Source: an uncultured Spirochaetota bacterium (GTDB taxonomy: Bacteria; Spirochaetota; Spirochaetia; SZUA-6; Fen-1364). Taken from it: a stretch of DNA of 64,000 bases. Positions within the stretch are counted from its first letter, which is position 1. Each line of letters opens with the position of its first letter. The notes under the pieces were generated by a model that was not told the DNA's origin, did no database searches, and worked only from the letters and a program-made list of their open reading frames with translations. The translations under genes were made by a program, and so were the position numbers. The DNA is taken from NCBI GenBank assembly GCA_963820525.1, contig CAWGAA010000002.1, positions 160,001 through 224,000 of the forward strand, read 5' to 3'. Shown here one piece after another: positions 1 to 13,387 of the stretch.

Positions 1-69
1 TGCGCTTGGAGCTTTTCTCATGCTTGATCAGGTTCAGCGCGATATGGGCCGCTGGAACAATATGTTGTA

Positions 70-1551
70 CTATATCCTGAATTGAACAATCCCGCCCGTA
101 TCATCGGTATATTCTATTAAGGATCGGCTGGTTTTCAAGTCCACGGTCAACGTACAGATCTTTTCTTCCTTCTGCCAGGAAATGCAGATAATGCTTTCTT
201 CGGTGTCCAGCACCTGGAAAATGCCGTTAAAGGCCGGATACTCGTTTCTGAAACGGATGAGCCTCAAGAGCCTCTGGACCACTTCTTTGCGGACATTGGC
301 GTTGATTTCCTCAACGCTGTAATTGTGGCGGTTGATCTCCCGGCCTTCTCCGGTCCGTTGAACGGCTTCCAGATCGTTTTCACCCGCGAGCAGCCCTATG
401 TAATAAACCTGCGGTATTCCTGGCGTGAAAAACTGGATGGCCCTGGCCGAGAGATAGGCGTCATCGTTCGAGTTCAGAACGGAGTAATAGGAGCACCGGA
501 TCTGGTGGACATCGAAACCGTCCGGGTCTTTATGTTTAGGCGAGAGTACATGGCTCAGGTTCGCGCCGCGCTCCACACAGGTTCTTACCAATTCCTTCGC
601 GTCATGGCCTTCATACAAGTCATTCAGATCCGGCTTGACTGGAATTCCGTCATGGCAATCGAGCATCGTGAATTGCCTGTGAGGACGGATGCTAAGATAG
701 TCTTTCAGTTTTTTGCCATTCTGCTTCAGCAGGGCTTCGAGAATGGTGTATGGCAATATAAAATCATATATCCAGTATCCATGTCCGGACAGATTGAACT
801 GGGTTGTGTAGTGTGCATGGACTTCGGGAAGCAGCTCGATCCCGAAGGAGTCAGCCAGTTTGCTGATCCAGTCCAGGAATTGGAAGATTTCCGGCTCCAC
901 GAAAAAGCAGCTTGTCCCGATTTTCTTGATCATGTAGCCAACGGCGTCCAGCCTGACCATCTTCACATTGTTCCGGTTGAAATTCGCCATAAACTGAGTC
1001 AGGAGCTGCCGGAACACCTCCGAATTCCAGTCCATGTCGATCTGCTCTGATGGGTCCTGCTTTCCAAAGGTGGTCCAGACCATTTCTTCCTTGCCGGTTT
1101 CCTCGATGGTGAAGCGAGAAAAAGGCGAGGGCCTGCGCAGGAATATTTTGGAAAGATCCTCTTCAGAAGGGTTGCCATCCGGCCACATCTTGTCCAAAGT
1201 GATAAACAAGTCCGCGTATCGCGAGCGGCGGCCCTTTTTCAGAAAGTCCTGAAAATAGAAGGACTGCCGGGAAATATGATTCACCATCAGGTCGAGCATG
1301 ACATCGGAGCTCTCGCTGATGTGCCATATATCCTTCCAGCTCCCGAATCTCGACTCTATCTCTAGATAGGTCAAGGGAGAGAAGCCCCTGTCTCCGGAAG
1401 AAGGAAACGGCGGCAGGATATGAATTCCACCGGAGAAAATTCCGGGAAAATAATTGCGGATGACCTGATCGAGCCCCTTTAAACTTCCTCCAAGCGAATC
1501 TGGATAGGTAACGAGTTGGACCCTATTCTTCACACCCATGGTGCGTTTCAT
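70..1551 (-). CDS. GH13_18 sucrose phosphorylase family; likely sucrose-6F-phosphate phosphorylase
   Basis: N-terminal VQLVTYPDSLGG, GIHILPPFPSSGDRGF, nucleophile motif VRLDAVGY, acid/base LPEVH, LDCHDGI, loop GFDVHQ. Confidence 0.9.
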   Translation of the reverse strand: MKRTMGVKNRVQLVTYPDSLGGSLKGLDQVIRNYFPGIFSGGIHILPPFPSSGDRGFSPLTYLEIESRFGSWKDIWHISESSDVMLDLMVNHISRQSFYFQDFLKKGRRSRYADLFITLDKMWPDGNPSEEDLSKIFLRRPSPFSRFTIEETGKEEMVWTTFGKQDPSEQIDMDWNSEVFRQLLTQFMANFNRNNVKMVRLDAVGYMIKKIGTSCFFVEPEIFQFLDWISKLADSFGIELLPEVHAHYTTQFNLSGHGYWIYDFILPYTILEALLKQNGKKLKDYLSIRPHRQFTMLDCHDGIPVKPDLNDLYEGHDAKELVRTCVERGANLSHVLSPKHKDPDGFDVHQIRCSYYSVLNSNDDAYLSARAIQFFTPGIPQVYYIGLLAGENDLEAVQRTGEGREINRHNYSVEEINANVRKEVVQRLLRLIRFRNEYPAFNGIFQVLDTEESIICISWQKEEKICTLTVDLKTSRSLIEYTDDTGGIVQFRI

Positions 1552-1554
1552 GAA

Positions 1555-2208
1555 TTATTCCATGCTCAGCACATCATAGTCTTTTGTGATAATGAAGTCC
1601 GCGAGCTGCCTATGCCCCGCTATGATCATGTGCTCGCTCATCAAAACCTGCTCGATGAATGGGTCTCCCGCTTCGTTGCCCCGGTTTCTTTTTTGCCTAT
1701 GCTCTAAGGTGTCCAAGCGACTTCTGGCTATAAAGATTCTGGTATCCACATGCTTCAGCAATGAAGAATAGGTTCCTTCAACAATGAGCACCTGGATGCC
1801 ATCCAAGCTTATTCTCTCTTCTTCAACGGAATTCGTATCATAATCGATTAGGGGCTTGATGAACTCGGTTTTCCCTTCGGCCGCGTCTCTCACATTGCTC
1901 TCCAGCAAATCAAGCTTCACCTCCACGTGGGGTCCGAGCCATTCCGGGTCTTTCCGTCTTTTCTCGTCATTAGACTTCGGCGGAAGAACGAAGTAATCGT
2001 CCTGCCCCAGTATCACGGATCGAACGCCGAGCATTGCCAGCTCGTCGGCAATCGCTTTCCCAGTCTCGGATTTGCCGCTGCCGGATTCGCCGGCAACCGT
2101 GATGATATATCTCGATGACTTCATTCTGACTTTTTCGATTATTCTTGACACGATCAAACCAGCCGCTTTGCGGTGATGTTCTTCCACTATGATAATATCC
2201 CCCTTCAT
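1555..2208 (-). CDS. P-loop kinase, uridine kinase/phosphoribulokinase family
   Basis: ITVAGESGSGKS Walker A, QDDYF, LIVEGTY; GAGGAGG upstream; stop 3 nt before the phosphorylase start. Confidence 0.8.
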   Translation of the reverse strand: MKGDIIIVEEHHRKAAGLIVSRIIEKVRMKSSRYIITVAGESGSGKSETGKAIADELAMLGVRSVILGQDDYFVLPPKSNDEKRRKDPEWLGPHVEVKLDLLESNVRDAAEGKTEFIKPLIDYDTNSVEEERISLDGIQVLIVEGTYSSLLKHVDTRIFIARSRLDTLEHRQKRNRGNEAGDPFIEQVLMSEHMIIAGHRQLADFIITKDYDVLSME

Positions 2209-2299
2209 TCTCAATGCCCTCCTCGGGTAGATCCGGCCCCAAAAGCCTCGTCAGCCTCGCGTCCCTCGCGTGCGTCCATGTCTCGCCCGAAAAAAACAA

Positions 2300-2362
2300 T
2301 TGACAGATAACCCAAAATGCCCCATAGTCGTAATGAAAGAACTTTCATGAAAACGCTTTCAT
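2300..2362 (+). promoter_or_regulatory. sigma70 promoter plus two overlapping LacI-type operator palindromes
   Basis: TTGACA(2300)-17nt-CATAGT(2323); ATGAAAGAACTTTCAT (2333-2348) and ATGAAAACGCTTTCAT (2347-2362). Confidence 0.65.
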
Positions 2363-3381
2363 CTAGAAGGGATAGCATACCACGCAAGGGTGAGTCAACA
2401 ATATATAGCGTCGCTGCCCACGCCGGGGTGAGCATCTCCACGGTGTCGCGCTTCCTCAACTCCCCTGAAAAAGTGAACGCCGAAACCGCCCGGCGCATCA
2501 AGTCCTCGATAGACCAGCTCGACTATTTCCCGCATGGACACACGGGAATGCGGGCGCACAGAAGCATCGGGCGTATTGGGGTCCTGTCGCCTTTCTTCCC
2601 CGCGCCTTCGTTCGTGCAGCGCCTCCAGGGCATGACCAGAGTCTTTCGGGAAGCGCATTGCGAGATGGTGATATGCGCGGTGGACTCTCCTGAACAACTG
2701 GCCGAATACCTGCACTCGATCTCCTTCCTGTGCAGGTTCGATGGCCTGATCATCATGTCGATGCACGTCGGGGACGGAGACGCCCGCCGCCTCATCCAGT
2801 CCAACCTCCACGTCGTGATGATCGAGTCCGTGAATCCCCTGTTCACGTGCGTCGAAGCAGACAACGTGCTGGGCGGACGCCTCGCGGCTCAATGCTTCCT
2901 GGAAAAGGGCTATTTGCCTTGCGCCTTCATCGGAGAGCAGACGTCCCTCCCCTACTCCCTGCAGCCCAGCGGCATGCGGATGGCCGGTTACCGTGAAGTC
3001 CTGCAGGCCGCGGGCCATCCACTGGCCCCTGAACTCATCCGGACCGGGCAGGTCAGTGTCGACGATGCGTGCCGCATGGCCGGGGAGTTGTTGGATCTGC
3101 CGGCGCCGCCACGCGCCATATTCGCGATGTCGGATCTCCAGGCCATCGGTGTTCTCAAGGCGGCACGGCAGCGGGGGATCGCGGTTCCGGAAGCGCTCGC
3201 GGTCCTGGGCTTCGACGACATCGAGGCGGCGGGCTTCATGGACCTGAGCACGGTGAGCCAGTCCCTGGAAGAATCTGGTCGAGTGGCCGCGCAGCTTCTC
3301 ATCGACCGCATTCGCGAGCCGGGCCGGCCCCTTCAGCGCGTGCACCTGGACGTGCGAGTTGTAGAGAGGGACACGACGTGA
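2347..3381 (+). CDS. LacI-family transcriptional regulator (start codon uncertain)
   Basis: TIYSVAAHAGVSISTVSRFLN HTH; AIFAMSDLQAIG and VLGFDD sugar-binding domain motifs. Confidence 0.92.
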   Translation: MKTLSSRRDSIPRKGESTIYSVAAHAGVSISTVSRFLNSPEKVNAETARRIKSSIDQLDYFPHGHTGMRAHRSIGRIGVLSPFFPAPSFVQRLQGMTRVFREAHCEMVICAVDSPEQLAEYLHSISFLCRFDGLIIMSMHVGDGDARRLIQSNLHVVMIESVNPLFTCVEADNVLGGRLAAQCFLEKGYLPCAFIGEQTSLPYSLQPSGMRMAGYREVLQAAGHPLAPELIRTGQVSVDDACRMAGELLDLPAPPRAIFAMSDLQAIGVLKAARQRGIAVPEALAVLGFDDIEAAGFMDLSTVSQSLEESGRVAAQLLIDRIREPGRPLQRVHLDVRVVERDTT

Positions 3382-3604
3382 ATGCGCGCCCTTTGCCCAG
3401 GAGGAGGATTCCGATTGTCACCCGTACTCCCGGTTGGGGAGGCAGCAAATCTCTTTCAGAAGGCGGAAGAAGATGAGACAGAAAACCATCATCATCTTCG
3501 CGGTCCTGACTCCGGTTGCCGGAGCGACTTTCAATAAGCTTCCTTTTCCTTTCCCCCTCGGTGAGGGGGCAGGTCACCATCAAGTTTTTTAAACGGAGGA
3601 TGCT

Positions 3605-4831
3605 ATGAAGAAACTCGTACTGGTACTCGCATCAATCCTGCTCGGTGCCGCGGCTTTTGCCCAGGGCATCACCCTGGCCCAGAACAAGCCCGAGATCGAC
3701 GCGGTCCTCAAGGCGTACGCGGCCGTGTGGTCCAAGGCGAACAACGTTCCCGTCACCATCAAGTCCGTGGGCGGCGGCATCGGCATGGACCTCAACAGCC
3801 AGCTCAAGGCCGACCTCGCCGCGGGCGACATGCCCGACATCTTCGCCATCAACGGCCTGGCGGAATACAAGGACTGGGCGGACCTCGTCCTCGACCTCTC
3901 GAGCGAGCCATGGGTAAAGAACACTTCGGTCGCGTTCAAGTATGACGGCAAGGTCTACGGCTACCCCGTCGCCATCGAGGGCTGGGGCATGGCCTACAAC
4001 GCCGACATCCTCAAGAAGGCCGGTGTCGATCCCAAGACCCTCGTCACCTACGCGGCCTACAAGGCCGCCTTCGAGAAGATCAACACCCAGAAGGCCAAGC
4101 TCGGCATCAAGTCCGTGGTCTCCATGGCCGCCTCTCTCGACATGGGCTGGGTCACTGCCCACCACAACTTCAACTCCCTGCTCTCGAACGGCCTTCCCTA
4201 CGGCGACCTCTCCGTCGTGAACGACCTCCTCGCCGGCAAGGTCGACGCCAAGCGCCTCTCCGAGTACGCCAACTGGGTGGAGCTCCTCTTCAAGTACGCC
4301 GACAAGGCCGTCCTCACCACGGGCAACTATGCCGCGCAGGTCGGCGCGTTCGCGTCCGGCCAGGCTGCCTTCCTCCACCAAGGCAACTGGACCGATCCCA
4401 ACATGGCAGAGGCGAAGGCCACCTTCCCCATGGCCTTTGCGCCCCACGGCTCCATGGCCAAGGCCACCGACGGCATCTTCGTGGCCGCCCCCTCGTTCTA
4501 TTGCGTCAACAAGAACTCCCGGAACGTCGCGGCCGCGAGGGAGTTCCTGAACGACCTCGTCTTCACCGAGGCGGGCAACAAGTACATGGTCCTCGACGCG
4601 GGCTCCATCCCCGCCTTCTCGAACGTGAAGCTCAACCCGACCGGCCAGCTCTCCAAGTCCGTCCAGGCCTGGGCCGCCGCCGGCAAGATCTACAGCTGGA
4701 ACCAGTACTACTTCACGGAAGATTTCCGCAACAAGACGCTCGCGCCGATCTACAACCAGTTTGCAACCGGCGCCATCACCAAGGCGCAGTTTATCGACCT
4801 CATGACCAAGGCCTTCCAGGGCCTGAAGTAG
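3605..4831 (+). CDS. carbohydrate ABC transporter substrate-binding protein
   Basis: signal peptide, GDMPDIF, GKVYGYP, AFLHQGNW; strong RBS GGAGG. Confidence 0.9.
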   Translation: MKKLVLVLASILLGAAAFAQGITLAQNKPEIDAVLKAYAAVWSKANNVPVTIKSVGGGIGMDLNSQLKADLAAGDMPDIFAINGLAEYKDWADLVLDLSSEPWVKNTSVAFKYDGKVYGYPVAIEGWGMAYNADILKKAGVDPKTLVTYAAYKAAFEKINTQKAKLGIKSVVSMAASLDMGWVTAHHNFNSLLSNGLPYGDLSVVNDLLAGKVDAKRLSEYANWVELLFKYADKAVLTTGNYAAQVGAFASGQAAFLHQGNWTDPNMAEAKATFPMAFAPHGSMAKATDGIFVAAPSFYCVNKNSRNVAAAREFLNDLVFTEAGNKYMVLDAGSIPAFSNVKLNPTGQLSKSVQAWAAAGKIYSWNQYYFTEDFRNKTLAPIYNQFATGAITKAQFIDLMTKAFQGLK

Positions 4832-4931
4832 GATCCGTCCTGCGGGCCTGCCGTATGGACGGCTCGCGTCCGACCCGCCCTCTGGCGCTTACCGGGGGGC
4901 GGGTTTATTATGTGCGCAGGAGCGTCAATAA

Positions 4932-5846
4932 ATGCGGAAAGCGAAACATCCCGCCGTCTTCTGGATCTTCCTCGCGCCCGTCCTCTTCGCCTTCGCGGTC
5001 GTCATCGTCATCCCCTTCTTTCTCGGTGTGTACTACTCCTTCACGAACTGGTCGGCGACGGCCCGGCTGGGTGACAGCCTTAAACTGGTTGGCCTCAAGA
5101 ACTACGCCGGCATCCTGAAGGACCCGAGCTTCACCTATTCCTTCATCCTCACGGTCGTGTACACCCTGCTTAACATGATCGTCATCAACGTGGTGTCATT
5201 CAGCCTTGCCATGCTCGTGACGCGGAAGCTCAAGGGACGCAACCTCTACCGCGCGGGCTTCTTCATCCCGAACCTCATCGGCGGCCTCATCCTCGGCTAC
5301 GTCTGGCAATTCATCTTTAATAACGCCGTTCCCTCGATCGGGACGATGCTCGGGTTCGCGTCCTGGGCAGACGCAGCGAACCTCATACTCGCAAAGAGCG
5401 GCACGGCTACCCTCGCCCTGGTCGTGGTGGGGACTTGGCAATACGCGGGCTACGTCATGGTCATCTACGTGGCCGCGATCGAGACCATCCCCCAGGAACT
5501 CATCGAAGCGGCGCAGATCGACGGCGCCTCGCCGCTTCGCCGGCTCTTGGCGATCACCTTGCCGATGACACGACAGGCTTTCACAATCACCCTCTTCCTG
5601 ACCCTGGTGAACTCGTTTAAGCAATTCGACGTCAACGTCTCCCTCACAGCGGGAGGACCGTCCGTCATGTACATGGGTCAGGCGATCTATGGCACCCAGC
5701 TCCTCGCCATGAACATCTACAACCAGGGTTTCAAGTCGAACGACATGGCCGGCGGCCAATCCCGCGCAGTCATATTCTTCCTCGTGCTGGTAATCGTTTC
5801 GATCATCCAAGTCTCCGTCAACAAGAAGCGGGAGATCGAGCTGTGA
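4932..5846 (+). CDS. carbohydrate ABC transporter permease (MalF-like)
   Basis: hydrophobic segments, EAA loop ELIEAAQIDGAS. Confidence 0.92.
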   Translation: MRKAKHPAVFWIFLAPVLFAFAVVIVIPFFLGVYYSFTNWSATARLGDSLKLVGLKNYAGILKDPSFTYSFILTVVYTLLNMIVINVVSFSLAMLVTRKLKGRNLYRAGFFIPNLIGGLILGYVWQFIFNNAVPSIGTMLGFASWADAANLILAKSGTATLALVVVGTWQYAGYVMVIYVAAIETIPQELIEAAQIDGASPLRRLLAITLPMTRQAFTITLFLTLVNSFKQFDVNVSLTAGGPSVMYMGQAIYGTQLLAMNIYNQGFKSNDMAGGQSRAVIFFLVLVIVSIIQVSVNKKREIEL

Positions 5847-6700
5847 AAAAGCGCCACCCCCGACTCGTCGCCCCCGAGATCCTCGCCGTCGTCCTCTTCC
5901 TCCTGTTCCTCTTTCCCTTCTTCATTGTCGTGGTGAACGCGGCAAAGACTCCCTTCGAGATCACGCAGAGCCCACTTACACTTCCCGCAGAATGGAAGAA
6001 GATCCTCGAGAACATGTGGTCGATCTGGACCAGCGTCAACGTTCACTACTCCTCCTCCTTCCTGAGCTCCGTCATCATCACCGTGGCTTCCCTCCTCCTG
6101 CTCAACGTCCTCTCCTCGCAGGCGGCCTGGGTCCTCGTGCGCACCAAGACGAAACTCTCGATGGGCATCTTCATCACTTTCGTCGCGGCAATGGTCATCC
6201 CCTTCCAGATCGTCATGTTCCCCCTGCTCACCTGGTTCCGCGAGATTTCCACGCTCACAGGGGTGCGGCTCCTCCGGTCCTTCGCGGGAATTATCCTCGC
6301 CTACATTGGCTTCGGCATGTCGCAGTCCATCTTCCTGTTCCACGGGTTTATAAAGAGCATTCCGCTGGAGCTCGAGGAGGCCGCGACCATCGACGGCTGC
6401 AAGCCCTGGCAGATCTTCTACCAGATCATCTTCCCTATCCTGAGGCCCATCCACGCGACGGTCCTCGTGCTGAACGGTATCTGGATATGGAACGATTACC
6501 TCCTCCCCCTTCTCATCCTCGGGAAGGGGAACAGGGTGATGACCATCCCTCTCGCCGTCTCCAACTTCGCGGGGGCATACGTCAAGCAGTGGGACCTCAT
6601 GCTCACGGCCATCCTCATGGCGATGATTCCCATCGTCATTTTCTTCCTCGTCGCCCAGAAGTCAATCATCAAGGGAATGGTCGCCGGCTCGATCAAATAA
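5843..6700 (+). CDS. carbohydrate ABC transporter permease (MalG-like)
   Basis: ELEEAATIDGC, WIWNDYLLP; start overlaps the upstream stop (GTGA). Confidence 0.92.
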   Translation: MKKRHPRLVAPEILAVVLFLLFLFPFFIVVVNAAKTPFEITQSPLTLPAEWKKILENMWSIWTSVNVHYSSSFLSSVIITVASLLLLNVLSSQAAWVLVRTKTKLSMGIFITFVAAMVIPFQIVMFPLLTWFREISTLTGVRLLRSFAGIILAYIGFGMSQSIFLFHGFIKSIPLELEEAATIDGCKPWQIFYQIIFPILRPIHATVLVLNGIWIWNDYLLPLLILGKGNRVMTIPLAVSNFAGAYVKQWDLMLTAILMAMIPIVIFFLVAQKSIIKGMVAGSIK

Positions 6701-8862: not shown

Positions 8863-10320
8863 TCAGGGTGCGCCGCGGGTCGATCCGGGGCGCCGCCCCT
8901 CGCGAGCCTCCGGCGCCTTCTCGCCCGCGGTCAGCAAGAGAACTGTCTGTTTGAACTTCCGTCCGCGGTCGAACTCGTTCTGAAACATGCCGAAGGACGT
9001 GCAGCCGGGGGAGAAGAGGATTGAAACCCCCTCGCGGGCGCGGGATAAGGCCGCCGACACGGCCGGTGAAAGCTCGGTGAACGGCCCTTCGTAGTGAATA
9101 CTCCGGGAGTCCAGGACACGCCGGAGCTTTTCAGTTCCCGTGCCGGCCAGGAGGATGATGGCCTCGGGCTTTTCAGCAACCTCAGAAAGCGGAGAAAAGT
9201 CGATGTTCTTGTCCGTGCCGCCCGTTATCAGCACCACGGGAGGCTCCAGGGCCTTGAGCGCCTGGACCGTGGCGTGGGGAATCGTCGCGGCGGAATCGTT
9301 GTAGATCCGGGCTCCCTTCCATGTGTGAAACATCTCAAGGCGGTGCTCGACGCCGGGGAACTCGGCGAGCGCCCTGCGGATAACTTCAGCCTTCACGCCG
9401 TAGAGGCTCAAGACCACGGCCGCGCAGAGGAGGTTCGATCGGTTGTGAGCCCCCGGGATTCGTGACTCCGCCAGTACTGTCTTGACGGGTCCTGTCTCGC
9501 TCAGCCGCACCACGCCTGTTTCCCCGGAAAGCCATCCGCCCAAAACGCCGTCGGGAAGAGCGTTCTCTGAATGGAAGAAACTGCGCGCATCCGTCTGCCT
9601 GGGAAAATCCTTCTGCCACGGATCGTCGAGATTGAATACGGCGAATGACCTGCGGCCCTGCTCCTGGAAGATCGCCTTTTTGTCCTCCACGTACTCGTTC
9701 ATGCCGGGATACTTGTCCAGGTGATCGGGGAGGATGACGGTGAACGCCGAAATCAAGGGCTTGATGAGGCCGCGGCCCTTCAGGTCCCCCAGCTGCCAGG
9801 AGGAGAGCTCCAGCACCACGGGAGACCGGGGATCGAGATCGTCGAGAAACGAAAGCGGGGAGACGGTGATGTTCCCGCCCAAACGGGCATTCGGGTCGAT
9901 AAGCTTCAGGGCGAAATGGATCGCGGATGCCGTGGTCGATTTTCCCTTGGAGCCGGTCACGGCAAGGATGGGGTTGGAGGCGAGGGAGAGGAAAACGGAA
10001 AGGTCCGTCTCCACGCTCACCCCCCGCGATCGGGCGGCCTGGAGGTAGGGCGAAGCCGTGGGCACGGCGGGGTTCTTGATGACCATGTCCGTCTCGATGA
10101 AATCCCGCTCTTCATGTTTTTCCAGGACGTAGCGGATGGGAAGCCCGGCCAGTGCTTCGATGGAGCTCGCCAGAGCCTCGCGCGTGCGCAGGTCTGTAAC
10201 CGTCACCGCGGCGCCGCGCCGCGCGAAATAGAGGGCGGATGCGAGGCCTCCCCCGTTTATTCCCAGGCCCATGACGGTGACCCTCATGCCCGGTATTCCG
10301 GAGGCGTCAATCTTGGACAC
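8863..10320 (-). CDS. murD: UDP-N-acetylmuramoyl-L-alanine--D-glutamate ligase
   Basis: VMGLGINGG, AVTGSKGKSTT, ELSSWQL, PDHLD, EHRLE, YNDSAAT, FSPGCTSF. Confidence 0.93.
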   Translation of the reverse strand: MSKIDASGIPGMRVTVMGLGINGGGLASALYFARRGAAVTVTDLRTREALASSIEALAGLPIRYVLEKHEERDFIETDMVIKNPAVPTASPYLQAARSRGVSVETDLSVFLSLASNPILAVTGSKGKSTTASAIHFALKLIDPNARLGGNITVSPLSFLDDLDPRSPVVLELSSWQLGDLKGRGLIKPLISAFTVILPDHLDKYPGMNEYVEDKKAIFQEQGRRSFAVFNLDDPWQKDFPRQTDARSFFHSENALPDGVLGGWLSGETGVVRLSETGPVKTVLAESRIPGAHNRSNLLCAAVVLSLYGVKAEVIRRALAEFPGVEHRLEMFHTWKGARIYNDSAATIPHATVQALKALEPPVVLITGGTDKNIDFSPLSEVAEKPEAIILLAGTGTEKLRRVLDSRSIHYEGPFTELSPAVSAALSRAREGVSILFSPGCTSFGMFQNEFDRGRKFKQTVLLLTAGEKAPEAREGRRPGSTRGAP

Positions 10321-11251
10321 TGAACTCCCTTTGTTCGGCCTCGTTGAGGTAGGCCTCCACCCGAAGCCTCTCCCACGGAGCGTACCAGGCCTCGGGGACT
10401 TTCGCCTTCAAATCGAGAAAGAACTTCATCTCCTCGGAGAAGCTGGTATTCTTCATCACCGCCTGGACCGTGTCGATGGTGGGAAGGAGAAACCGAACCG
10501 CGCGGTGGAGCTGGGGGATGACCCCCTTGCGCTCCTCGGGCCCCAGGTCGATGACGGACTGGCAGACGGTTTTGTACTTGCAGAGGTAGGGATAGAAGGG
10601 ATAGGTCTTCTTTCCCTTGGGGAGGAAGAGCTTGCTGAAGAACTTGGTGAGGTCCATGTCGATCCAGATTCCCTGAACGAAATACCCGCGGCCCTGCTCT
10701 CCGATCCAGGTCTGGGAGATCGTCTGCTTGATCCGGAAGGACTTCACTTTCCCCTCCACGCGGATAACCTCGTCGAGCGGGATCACCACCGCCTCCAGGA
10801 AGAGCTTCCGCGAGCGGTAGAGGGAGGTCATGTCGTTGGTGCCGCGCTCGATGACCACGCCCTCGGACGGCTTCAGCATGAGGTCCAGCCTGAGCAGGTA
10901 GAGGTAGAAGCATTCTTCCAGGCGGTAGATCTTGAAGAAGCTGGGCCTGAGGATCTCCGCCGGGTCGAAGAAGTAGGCGAGGTCATTCAATGCCTGCGGA
11001 GCGAGCCTGACCACCTGCGCGATCACGTTGATGAGGTTCCCCAGGTAGACCTTGTCCGGCTGCGCCACGCGCACGTCGTGGTGGATGGGGAAATGGGGCA
11101 CCACCAGATCGCCCTGCAGCTTGAGGAAGAACTCCTCGTCCTGGCTGAAGTGCCGTGTGATCGGGTTCGAGGCGTCCCCGATCGATTCGAGGAGCGCATT
11201 GATCTCCCGATCAGAGTATCCGAGACGTATCTCGTTGGCGATTTGCTCCAC
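10307..11251 (-). CDS. hypothetical protein (start uncertain)
   Basis: long ORF with genome-typical codon bias; overlaps the murD start. Confidence 0.7.
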   Translation of the reverse strand: MEQIANEIRLGYSDREINALLESIGDASNPITRHFSQDEEFFLKLQGDLVVPHFPIHHDVRVAQPDKVYLGNLINVIAQVVRLAPQALNDLAYFFDPAEILRPSFFKIYRLEECFYLYLLRLDLMLKPSEGVVIERGTNDMTSLYRSRKLFLEAVVIPLDEVIRVEGKVKSFRIKQTISQTWIGEQGRGYFVQGIWIDMDLTKFFSKLFLPKGKKTYPFYPYLCKYKTVCQSVIDLGPEERKGVIPQLHRAVRFLLPTIDTVQAVMKNTSFSEEMKFFLDLKAKVPEAWYAPWERLRVEAYLNEAEQREFSVQD

Positions 11252-11425
11252 CGTGGGGTATTTAAGCCGAAATAGGCCGTTCGCGCAACCTGAGTTCAGC
11301 GGCCGGCTGGAGGCGAGATGGCACGGCCAGCGGGGCCTGGGCAGTGAGGGCCGGCCCGGTTCGCTCGAAAAGCCGCCGCAGGGCTTCTCCACGGGCGGAC
11401 CAAGGCCGGCGGGCGCAAGCCGGCC

Positions 11426-13387
11426 CTAGCCTCCCAGCTGCTTGGGGCTCACCACCGGCCCGAACTTCTCCTTCAGGGCCAAAAGCCCCTTCTTCTGCTC
11501 CTCGTAGACTTCCAGGATCCGCGGCGGAAGCTTTTTCTCCTTCTTATAGGCGTCTTCCTGGAGCTGGATGCGGGAGACGATGTTGTCGATGTAGAAGGAG
11601 AACTGCCTGTCATAGAGCTCCCGCGGATATTCCTTGTTCACGAGGCCCGTGAACAGGGCCGCCAGATCCTCGTATCTCGGGATGAAGCCGATGGGGGCGT
11701 CGATGGCCGATACCTCGCCATGCGCCATGCGCTCCAGCCAGGAAAGCCAGACCTTCACGTCTCGCTTCTCTCCCAGGAGCTTCGTCGTGTCCCCGCCGCG
11801 TGCGCAGTCCATGAGGAAGTAGTTGAGGCCCGCCATAAGGGGCCTGCCGCCGGCGGAGAACTTCTTCGAGTTGAAGAACTGGAACTGGGCCTCCATGTAA
11901 TCCCCCAGAGGGCAGGGGATGAAAGGGGAGTTGGCCCACGGCTGCCGGTTCACTCCCTTGGCGCCCACTTCCGTGGCGGTAGCGGCGGAGAGGATTGAAG
12001 CGCCGATGACGACTCCATGGTCGGGATTCTTTGCCACCCAGACCGGGGGCATGGTGTCGCTGTCGCGGCCGCTGTAGGTGATCACCTTGATGGGCACTCC
12101 CGCCGGATCATTGCCGTACTTCCCGTTGTGGTTGCCGATCGCCTCATTGGAAAGGGTGATCCGCGCGTTGGGATTGGAGATGGGCACCGGCTTTCCGTTT
12201 GCGTCGGTCTTGCCCGGCCACCACTCCCCCTGGAAGTTCCTGCCCTTCTGCGGCACGGGCTCGCCGCTGCCTTTCCAATGTGGCACCCTGTTCTCGTCCA
12301 CCAGGACGTTCGACCAGATGACCTCGGTGCACTCCCGGCGCAGGCACTTGTAGAGGAAGGGGTCCCCCTCCTTGTTCAGGTCTTCCACGATTCCGAATAT
12401 GCCGATCTCGGGGTTCACGGCGCGAAGGGTGCCGTCCCGGCCTATCCACATCTGCGCCAGGTCGTCGCCGATATAATCAGAGCCCACCATTGCGGTGGTG
12501 GTCTTGCCGCATCCCGAAGGGGCGGCTCCTGCGAAGAAGGTCTTCCTGCCGCCGGGTCCCGTCATGCCGGTGATGAACATGTGCTCGGAGAGCTCCTTCT
12601 CCCGGCGGTAATACGTGCAGAGGTCCACGGCGAAGCGGTGGTTTCCCTTCTTGAGCATCAGGGTGTTTCCCGCATAGGTGCAGTACATGCTGAAGGTGGT
12701 GAACCAGCTCCTGTCCATGAAGATCCGCGCCTTCGAGATGTCCTCTGACCGGTTGGTACCCTGGCTGTGCACGTTCGTGAAGAACACCCCGGCGCGCTTC
12801 GCCTCGGCGTCGAACTTCTCGTAGACGTCTCGGTAGAGGATGTTGGCGCTGTGAAGCACGTAGGCGGAGCTGGAGATCATCAGGCCGGGGATGGCGGCCT
12901 GGGCTCCGATGGGCCCGCGGTTGTAGAAGCCGACAAGCATCGTCTTTCCCCGCATGATCCCGCCCATCGTCTCCTTGATGTAGGCCATGGCCTCGGCGCG
13001 GATCATCTTCTTGGCCAGGACGCTCACCTCTTCATCTTCGTTGGCGATGTAGAAGGTCTGGTCCACCATGCGGCCCTGGTCCTCGGGCAGGTCGAAATGG
13101 ATGGTGTGGTCCTTCATGGCGAGGGGGGATTCTTCCCCGTTCGCCAGGCTCATCCGGCGGCAGGCGGCGATGTCCTCCGGCGAGCCGCTCACCACGAACA
13201 CGCGCTCCGGGCGGCACATGGCGATCGCATTGGCGATCTTCAACAGCGCCTCCGGGTTCTTGATCCGTTCGAGCTTCTTTCGGTTCTCGGCATCGAGTGC
13301 AGTTTCGAAGACCTTCCTGGCGTCGGATGCGGTTTTGACGCCTCCTGCCTCGCACAGGATGTCGACACCCTTCTTCAGCTCCAGCAT
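11426..13387 (-). CDS. pckG: phosphoenolpyruvate carboxykinase (GTP)
   Basis: YAGNTL, SEHM, GAAPSGCGKT, IGDDLA, NPEIGIFG, SNPNAR. Confidence 0.93.
   Translation of the reverse strand: MLELKKGVDILCEAGGVKTASDARKVFETALDAENRKKLERIKNPEALLKIANAIAMCRPERVFVVSGSPEDIAACRRMSLANGEESPLAMKDHTIHFDLPEDQGRMVDQTFYIANEDEEVSVLAKKMIRAEAMAYIKETMGGIMRGKTMLVGFYNRGPIGAQAAIPGLMISSSAYVLHSANILYRDVYEKFDAEAKRAGVFFTNVHSQGTNRSEDISKARIFMDRSWFTTFSMYCTYAGNTLMLKKGNHRFAVDLCTYYRREKELSEHMFITGMTGPGGRKTFFAGAAPSGCGKTTTAMVGSDYIGDDLAQMWIGRDGTLRAVNPEIGIFGIVEDLNKEGDPFLYKCLRRECTEVIWSNVLVDENRVPHWKGSGEPVPQKGRNFQGEWWPGKTDANGKPVPISNPNARITLSNEAIGNHNGKYGNDPAGVPIKVITYSGRDSDTMPPVWVAKNPDHGVVIGASILSAATATEVGAKGVNRQPWANSPFIPCPLGDYMEAQFQFFNSKKFSAGGRPLMAGLNYFLMDCARGGDTTKLLGEKRDVKVWLSWLERMAHGEVSAIDAPIGFIPRYEDLAALFTGLVNKEYPRELYDRQFSFYIDNIVSRIQLQEDAYKKEKKLPPRILEVYEEQKKGLLALKEKFGPVVSPKQLGG

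Follow-up and report, generated by a model that had tools for sequence, protein, structure and literature searches.

Where does the substrate of sucrose-6F-phosphate phosphorylases (SPPs) come from? These enzymes have been characterised from four organisms, and the source of sucrose-6F-phosphate, metabolic or environmental, is given as "currently unknown" in a published review (PMC7178133). The question is raised by a 64,000-nucleotide stretch of DNA from an uncultured Spirochaetota bacterium (GenBank assembly GCA_963820525.1, contig CAWGAA010000002.1, positions 160,001 to 224,000; hereafter the window), the first 6.7 kb of which hold six genes: those of a P-loop kinase and a predicted SPP, divergent from lacI and the genes of a sugar ATP-binding cassette (ABC) importer. 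We report that the kinase and phosphorylase genes are paired in other genomes far beyond chance. In the best reading of the locus, which we consider about equally likely to prove right or wrong, imported sucrose would be phosphorylated on the fructosyl O6 by the kinase and then phosphorolysed. The six genes are as follows.

70..1551, minus strand: GH13_18 phosphorylase, 493 amino acids (aa), predicted SPP of the type of TtSPP from Thermoanaerobacterium thermosaccharolyticum
1555..2208, minus strand: P-loop kinase, 217 aa, with the phosphoribulokinase (PRK)/uridine-kinase/pantothenate-kinase (PanK) fold, from an uncharacterised family
2317..3381, plus strand: LacI-family regulator (PF00356 and PF13377)
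3605..4831, plus strand: sugar ABC substrate-binding protein (PF13416 and PF01547, SBP_bac_1/8)
4932..5846, plus strand: ABC permease 1 (PF00528, BPD_transp_1)
5843..6700, plus strand: ABC permease 2 (PF00528, BPD_transp_1)

The phosphorylase and the kinase upstream of it

The phosphorylase scored 492 bits against TIGR03852 (cut-off 334.4), which places it in the GH13_18 sucrose-phosphorylase family, and its best match in the PDB is TtSPP itself (6s9v, E 2.6e-212, residues 4-491 aligned). Residue roles were assigned by reading this alignment against the TtSPP numbering of Franceus et al. (PMC6720575). The catalytic nucleophile Asp197, acid/base Glu238 and transition-state Asp296 are kept, in RLDAVGY, LPEVH and CHDG, as are all six residues that bind fructose-6-phosphate in TtSPP, namely Arg134, Arg195, Tyr201, His344, Gln345 and Arg399, held in the stretches FLRR, DVHQ, RLD, GY and GREINRH. 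The first Arg of the loop B motif KIFLRR (1132..1149, minus strand; residues 135-140) aligns with Arg134, and the His and Gln of the loop A motif GFDVHQ (502..519, minus strand; residues 345-350) align with His344 and Gln345; Arg134 and His344 are the residues described as binding the phosphate in TtSPP (PMC6720575). GFD[VI]HQ is present in 54 of 63 related metagenome loci, the other nine showing no such motif in the matched stretch. By every sequence criterion tested, the identification of the window enzyme as a TtSPP-type SPP is therefore supported. Enzymes of this type are described as having poor affinity for sucrose and preferring sucrose-6F-phosphate (Franceus and Desmet, PMC7178133), while TtSPP does act on sucrose and accepts many acceptors (PMC6720575). 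A first-pass annotation of the window had placed the genes as listed, with the kinase 3 nt ahead of the phosphorylase, and had named the enzyme an SPP on the strength of KIFLRR and GFDVHQ; the placement, both motifs and, at the level of family score and of catalytic and fructose-6-phosphate-binding residues, the identity all agree with our analysis.

The stop codon of the kinase gene (TAA) is separated from the ATG of the phosphorylase gene by a spacer of exactly 3 nt (TTC). The kinase open reading frame as originally listed runs from a TTG at 2214 (1555..2214, minus strand), but the ATG at 2208 is the likelier start, being preceded by the Shine-Dalgarno sequence GAGGAGG and yielding the 217 aa of nearly all relatives. 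Downstream of the phosphorylase gene there is a gap of 273 nt, followed by a gene of 995 aa in DNA of normal GC content, which from its N-terminal sequence alone reads as a pyruvate phosphate dikinase; the operon therefore comprises two genes, and an extension beyond the phosphorylase was ruled out by this gap and the normal GC content at the 995-aa gene.

The kinase belongs to the PRK/uridine-kinase Pfam family PF00485 by a weak match (34.3 bits, gathering threshold 22). It falls far below the cut-offs of the uridine-kinase equivalogs TIGR00235 (42.8 against 220.3 bits) and NF004018 (41.5 against 180 bits), and of the FrcK-type model NF006746, named "fructose transport system kinase" (25.2 against 250 bits). 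The AlphaFold model, for which 79 members of the family were used, is confident (pLDDT 96.1), and the solved folds closest to it are PanK, the FrcK-like 3c8u, PRK and UCK2, at TM-scores of 0.6-0.68; the likeness to 3c8u (0.63) is one of fold only. On this model, the kinase is a separate branch of the PRK/uridine-kinase/PanK fold group. The Walker A motif GESGSGKS (2068..2091, minus strand) has G40, G43, G45 and K46 invariant in the 79 members, and the motif GQDDYF (1990..2007, minus strand) aligns with the DDYH stretch of the archaeal PRK 5b3f. An exhaustive phmmer search of the representatives of 50%-identity clusters returned 628 clusters at E<=1e-3, and the relatives at that threshold number 4929, mostly of 217 aa, the best 120 being 71-100% identical; "uridine kinase" is the automatic name of these relatives in public sources. 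A look-alike search with the kinase in a sequence atlas gave generic PRK clusters only, and a plasmid collection yielded a single distant match of 40% identity. Two stronger PF00485 matches (75 and 63.6 bits) lie elsewhere in the window's genome, both within longer proteins, where they form the C-terminal parts of frames of ~450 and ~670 aa (G000:C3:358539-359891 and G000:C2:527988-530006).

Pairing of the kinase with two clades of phosphorylase

The pairing was assessed from both of its members. On the kinase side, 29 genome loci were sampled from Spirochaetota, Chloroflexota, Bacteroidota and Actinomycetota, and 19 of them carry a TtSPP-type phosphorylase homologue (58-82% identical to that of the window), directly downstream of the kinase in 15 and convergent with it in 4; among the 10 loci without one, two lie on contigs that end just past the kinase, six have a protein of ~700 aa, and two have neither. 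Starting from the phosphorylase, we used peptides of the window protein to retrieve 63 metagenome loci, a sample thereby biased to close relatives, and 10 had too little upstream DNA; the kinase lies directly upstream on the same strand in 39 of the 53 assessable loci, mostly with a gap or an overlap of a few bases. In one protein, P0121, the kinase is fused to the phosphorylase, the kinase part being 73% identical to the window kinase. The pairing is far beyond chance, and the gene-neighbourhood co-occurrence that the first-pass annotation had named as a check on its proposal passes in both directions and extends, as set out below, to the strictly specific clade of SPPs. All six genes are found in the arrangement of the window, at 79-85% identity, in a related Spirochaetia metagenome-assembled genome (L003), and four Chloroflexota loci (L006, L007, L010 and L030) have a LacI homologue of 44-45% identity close to the pair; in a further Chloroflexota locus (L014), such a homologue lies near the kinase, and the contig ends before any phosphorylase could be seen.

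A FastTree phylogeny of 86 kinase domains groups the kinases by genomic context. Those linked to SPPs are one clade of 47 rows (SH-like support 98), which adjoins the kinases linked to the ~700-aa protein and is separate from kinases fused to GH100 domains or to GT4 enzymes. The conserved positions that distinguish this clade are Gly68, Asp81, a His94-Val95 insertion, Asn105, Ala109 and a Gly177-Asn178 insertion; Gly68, which lies within GQDDYF, is specific to it and is replaced by His or Gln in other clades.

A sharper view of what the kinase accompanies is given by Actinomycetota. From a search of 401 genomes of this phylum with the window phosphorylase, 31 GH13_18 loci were retained together with flanks of 1.5 kb. 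The kinase-family profile matched six of the 31, all six IcSPP-like (IcSPP being the SPP of Ilumatobacter coccineus); in the same flanks, it matched nothing at the 18 loci that encode a phosphorylase with an ordinary D[LIV]YQ loop. The six phosphorylases share the loop B motif (L/M)F(M/F/L)RKPGL; two of them were checked against the PDB, with 6s9u as the best match of both, and the protein of locus L139 agrees with 6s9u at all 505 residues compared (100% identity). This structure is of IcSPP, which is reported to be active on sucrose-6F-phosphate but on none of the other compounds tested (PMC6720575). The 6s9u-identical gene, which is also seen in L150, follows a kinase gene whose product shares 73% identity with the window kinase; the two genes overlap by 4 nt, a GH32-like gene precedes that of the kinase, and the operon is divergent from genes for a binding protein, two permeases and LacI. 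The main text of the report on IcSPP uses the word "kinase" once, unrelated to the gene upstream (PMC6720575). At locus L152, a divergent member of the family precedes the IcSPP-like gene; hhalign matched it at 99.6% probability and 27% identity, and it carries ~55 inserted residues. TtSPP- and IcSPP-type enzymes bind the phosphate with different residues, and the kinase stands beside genes of both types and not beside those with the D[LIV]YQ loop; it therefore tracks substrate specificity rather than membership of GH13_18. Locus L152, from a small Actinomycetota genome, has two phosphorylases in one ABC locus (4787-6244 and 9932-11653), one with an ordinary DIYQ loop and one IcSPP-like, along with a full-length GH32 gene and an esterase gene.

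Alternative origins of the substrate were also sought. In the window's genome, which is 96.7% complete, there was no match to the EIIC component of a phosphotransferase system (PTS), to the sucrose-phosphate synthase (SPS)/sucrose-synthase domain PF00862, to sucrose-phosphatase (S6PP) or to GH32, and in five other pair-carrying genomes PF00862 was likewise without a match and PTS EIIC without one above cut-off; as some of these genomes are incomplete, the searches record that nothing was found and do not establish absence. The non-PTS character ascribed to the pathway in the first-pass annotation is in line with the lack of an EIIC match.

Loci of related make-up provide side observations. The ~700-aa protein (L021:3812-5938, L024:6787-8808, L027:7635-9728, L028:7416-9734, L029:6436-8547 and L031:9565-11661) adjoins sister-clade kinases in place of the phosphorylase, directly downstream in all of these except L031, where a neopullulanase-like GH13 gene lies between the two. 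It matched no family when four copies were compared with Pfam and two with NCBIfam, and a profile of five copies gave a weak match to the GH13 conserved regions I and II of the maltosyltransferase 1gju (E 1.5e-6), so that it may be an undescribed GH13-like partner enzyme. At two loci (L093:1734-3902 and L095), a 722-aa SPS-like GT4 protein is encoded directly upstream of a TtSPP-type phosphorylase, with MFS transporters flanking, so that a synthase gene adjoins the gene of a phosphorylase that acts on the same sugar phosphate. At L062, an APH-type phosphotransferase gene (1244-2311) lies ~1.7 kb upstream of a kinase-less TtSPP-type gene.

The acceptor of the kinase

The best reading envisages a cassette of two genes that was acquired horizontally and placed under the control of a LacI-type regulator, next to an ABC importer of the oligosaccharide type, and its pathway would consist of four steps: (i) unphosphorylated sucrose, or a sugar yielding sucrose, would be imported; (ii) the P-loop kinase would use the gamma-phosphate of ATP to phosphorylate sucrose at the 6-OH of its fructofuranosyl moiety, giving sucrose-6F-phosphate, free fructose perhaps being accepted too; (iii) the GH13_18 enzyme would phosphorolyse sucrose-6F-phosphate to glucose-1-phosphate and fructose-6-phosphate; and (iv) both products would enter glycolysis. 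We infer the acceptor and the regiochemistry of the kinase, as well as the imported sugar. Most contexts of the family would fit a kinase that phosphorylates fructofuranose rings at the 6-OH, and the fructosyl moiety of sucrose is the most plausible acceptor in the SPP-linked clade because (i) the partner enzyme keeps its hold on the phosphate, which IcSPP strictly requires, (ii) no other source of sucrose-6F-phosphate was found, and (iii) importers of the binding-protein type deliver unphosphorylated sugar. It is a chemical argument, and not a result, that a beta-fructofuranoside presents a CH2OH group like the 5'-CH2OH of nucleosides.

A number of observations weigh against this proposal, the first being that the acceptor is not readable from the kinase sequence. 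(i) Searches of longer proteins revealed family members, 30-43% identical to the window kinase, fused to other enzymes: GH100 invertase-like domains (the largest group), SPS-like GT4 enzymes, a TreC-like GH13 alpha,alpha-phosphotrehalase in P0302 and P0220 (NF008183, 585-590 bits, above cut-off) and, once, a bifunctional trehalose-phosphate synthase/phosphatase (P0340). The trehalose-related fusions suggest glucose or trehalose, in place of fructose or sucrose, as the substrate of some clades, and a hexose 6-kinase would fit the fusions better than a disaccharide kinase because the partner synthases need hexose-6-phosphate and the hydrolases release free hexose. (ii) The kinase is missing from 14 of the 53 assessable phosphorylase loci, and in five of these 14 a PfkB-family gene occupies its slot directly upstream of the TtSPP-type gene (L058:245-1201, L059:3023-3979, L060:3000-3992, L061:536-1498 and L066:3-953), an apparent non-orthologous displacement; the closest solved structure to the PfkB protein is a fructokinase (3hj6, E 7.6e-79), and the corresponding PfkB enzyme of the T. 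thermosaccharolyticum operon has been called a phosphofructokinase (PMC7178133). (iii) GH32 genes, which could release free fructose, are also present in the IcSPP-like loci L150 and L152. (iv) The promiscuous TtSPP types cleave sucrose, and the order phosphorylase, then fructokinase, would give the same net reaction. (v) The only published sucrose kinase is reported to act on the glucosyl C6 (PMC7688924).

The main rival, then, is a simple fructokinase; the protein would in that case be a new P-loop type of hexose 6-kinase and would either make fructose-6-phosphate once a promiscuous phosphorylase has split imported sucrose into glucose-1-phosphate and fructose, or supply fructose-6-phosphate for the reverse reaction. 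Of this rival as a whole, our view is that it is unlikely, though it fares best of the alternatives. It would account for the fusions to GH100, SPS-like GT4, TreC-like and trehalose-phosphate synthase/phosphatase enzymes, for the fructokinase-like PfkB in the same slot of five loci and for the GH32 genes of L150 and L152, and it draws on the reported activity of TtSPP on sucrose (PMC6720575). It sits poorly with the phosphate-binding Arg and His kept in the phosphorylases that are paired with SPP-linked kinases, and with the position of the same kinase clade before the strict IcSPP, which releases no free fructose on which a fructokinase could act. The fused clades, moreover, are separate from the SPP-linked one and differ from it at positions 68, 81, 94-95, 105, 109 and 177, and the window's genome already has 16 PfkB-family matches.

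It is improbable that the pair serves another imported alpha-glucoside and its phosphate, or that the ABC importer takes up sucrose-6F-phosphate itself, the kinase having a side role. In its favour, the best PDB match of the binding protein is named "maltose-binding protein" (9xor, E 1.5e-44); TtSPP takes many acceptors (PMC6720575), and uptake of a phosphorylated sugar was proposed for Ruminococcus gnavus by Tauzin et al. (PMC6521584). Against this, all fructose-6-phosphate-binding residues are kept, and the tight coupling of kinase to phosphorylase would be purposeless if the substrate arrived phosphorylated.

Slightly less probable again is a fructose-6-phosphate 1-kinase acting downstream of the phosphorylase, as the PfkB of T. 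thermosaccharolyticum would if it is the phosphofructokinase that it is described to be (PMC7178133). The chemistry would resemble that of PRK, in which the C1-OH of a ketose phosphate is phosphorylated, the archaeal PRK 5b3f ranks high among the matches in both sequence and fold, and PfkB displaces the kinase in the same slot. However, the window's genome already has four matches to the phosphofructokinase family PF00365, such a kinase would work against a fused SPS-like enzyme, which consumes fructose-6-phosphate, and the source of the substrate would be left unexplained in genomes with no PTS EIIC or SPS-type synthase found. A nucleoside (uridine) kinase that neighbours the phosphorylase by chance, as the automatic public names and the PF00485 match might suggest, was ruled out as an identity by the equivalog scores and the genomic context, and is hardly credible given the pairing kept across phyla and the two stronger PF00485 matches elsewhere in the genome.

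Phosphorylation of sucrose at the fructosyl O6 therewith stands as the reading that we prefer for the window. The wider claim, that the 217-residue "uridine kinase" family holds the missing sucrose 6F-kinases that feed both SPP clades, and so defines a PTS-independent route of sucrose use, by phosphorylation and then phosphorolysis, in Chloroflexota, Actinomycetota, Spirochaetota and Bacteroidota, is more tentative, and we would lean slightly against it. If it is true, a dedicated cytoplasmic kinase would close the gap in the source of sucrose-6F-phosphate, including for the gene identical to the strict 6s9u; thousands of genes named "uridine kinase" would acquire a function, and the PRK/uridine-kinase fold a new sugar-kinase specificity; and kinase and phosphorylase together would be of practical use, linking sucrose to glucose-1-phosphate and fructose-6-phosphate with just two enzymes.

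Origin, control and relation to known systems

The kinase and phosphorylase genes are exactly covered by a low-GC island, which is bounded by the 995-aa gene on one side and lacI on the other. Its GC content is 0.48-0.53, against 0.60-0.61 for the genome; the two genes themselves have a GC content of 0.49-0.50, against 0.58-0.65 for neighbouring genes, and of 0.60-0.65 at third codon positions, against 0.77-0.92 in neighbouring genes. Among 400 other genomes of the window's phylum that were sampled, the kinase occurs in one, and there is no phosphorylase closer than 44% identity; in a Chloroflexia locus (L005), the pair is likewise lower in GC than its surroundings. Together, the island, the rarity in the phylum, the arrangement in L003 and the GC content in L005 point to horizontal spread of the two-gene unit. 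The island and the features of the intergenic region are as follows.

1..2300 (genome C2:159800-162300): low-GC island
2209..2346: divergent control region, with the Shine-Dalgarno sequence GAGGAGG before the kinase ATG and a promoter-like site
2300-2328, plus strand: promoter-like TTGACA-17-CATAGT, a consensus match only
2334..2361: two adjacent 14-bp palindromes, TGAAAGAACTTTCA and TGAAAACGCTTTCA, candidate LacI operators

The palindromes lie between the promoter-like site and the LacI start, which is probably the ATG at 2347, and presumably resemble operators of the LacI family. They are the only two matches to TGAAANNNNTTTCA in the 64 kb, a count that alone is weak, since at least two matches occurred in 28 of 100 shuffles. 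No LacI operator was found before the binding-protein gene at one mismatch or fewer. Regulation of the locus by LacI is what we infer from this arrangement.

In comparison with uridine kinase, PRK, PanK and the FrcK-like kinases, the window kinase shares the fold and the Walker A motif, but it lies far below the equivalog cut-offs, reaches TM-scores of only 0.6-0.68 and has sugar enzymes rather than nucleotide enzymes as partners. The TtSPP operon (EC 2.4.1.329, 6s9v) has a close homologue of the window phosphorylase, with the same catalytic and +1-site residues, and a kinase gene in the same operon; it differs in that the partner kinase is a PfkB-family enzyme, described as a phosphofructokinase, and a PTS lies in the operon (PMC7178133), whereas the window has a P-loop kinase and an ABC importer, with no PTS EIIC found. 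The IcSPP locus has the architecture of the window, with the 73%-identical kinase directly upstream and ABC and LacI genes divergent, although its phosphorylase is only 33% identical to that of the window, has other +1 residues (PMC6720575) and is accompanied by a GH32-like gene before the kinase.

The remaining comparison is with AgaSK of R. gnavus, a GH36 alpha-galactosidase fused to a C-terminal kinase domain of ~215 residues with a Walker A motif, which was modelled on the uridine kinase 3ASY (PMC7688924). According to the same account, the isolated kinase domain phosphorylates sucrose in an ATP-dependent manner (Km 1.0 mM, kcat 2.4 per s), AgaSK is encoded beside an ABC importer and a strict SPP, and the product is sucrose-6-glucose-phosphate, phosphorylated at the glucosyl C6. 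Given this glucosyl product, its authors route it to a hydrolase and propose import of sucrose-6F-phosphate (PMC6521584); a general link of SPP genes with kinase domains was noted by Tauzin et al. in that publication. The first-pass annotation had known of no such activity for this kinase family, a statement that has to be withdrawn in view of the AgaSK domain, a published ATP-dependent sucrose kinase, albeit one reported to act at the glucosyl C6 (PMC7688924). A sucrose kinase domain is thus already known, whereas we found no paper that describes the stand-alone family, or a 6F-phosphate role for it, in the literature outside subscription papers (among these the original 2011 and 2014 reports). 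A GH36 fusion of the kinase family was not encountered in weak word-based searches of longer proteins or among the best 150 of the 628 phmmer clusters, and the family profile did not match PDB 2yfn. AgaSK and the window kinase, likened here by description only, have in common a length of ~215 residues, a Walker A motif and a uridine-kinase-like fold, and both are found beside an SPP and an ABC importer; AgaSK differs in its fusion to GH36 and in its reported glucosyl-phosphorylated product. If the wider claim made above is true, the product of the AgaSK kinase domain would, as a corollary, also be the 6F-phosphate, and the mismatch between this kinase and the strict phosphorylase encoded next to it would be resolved.

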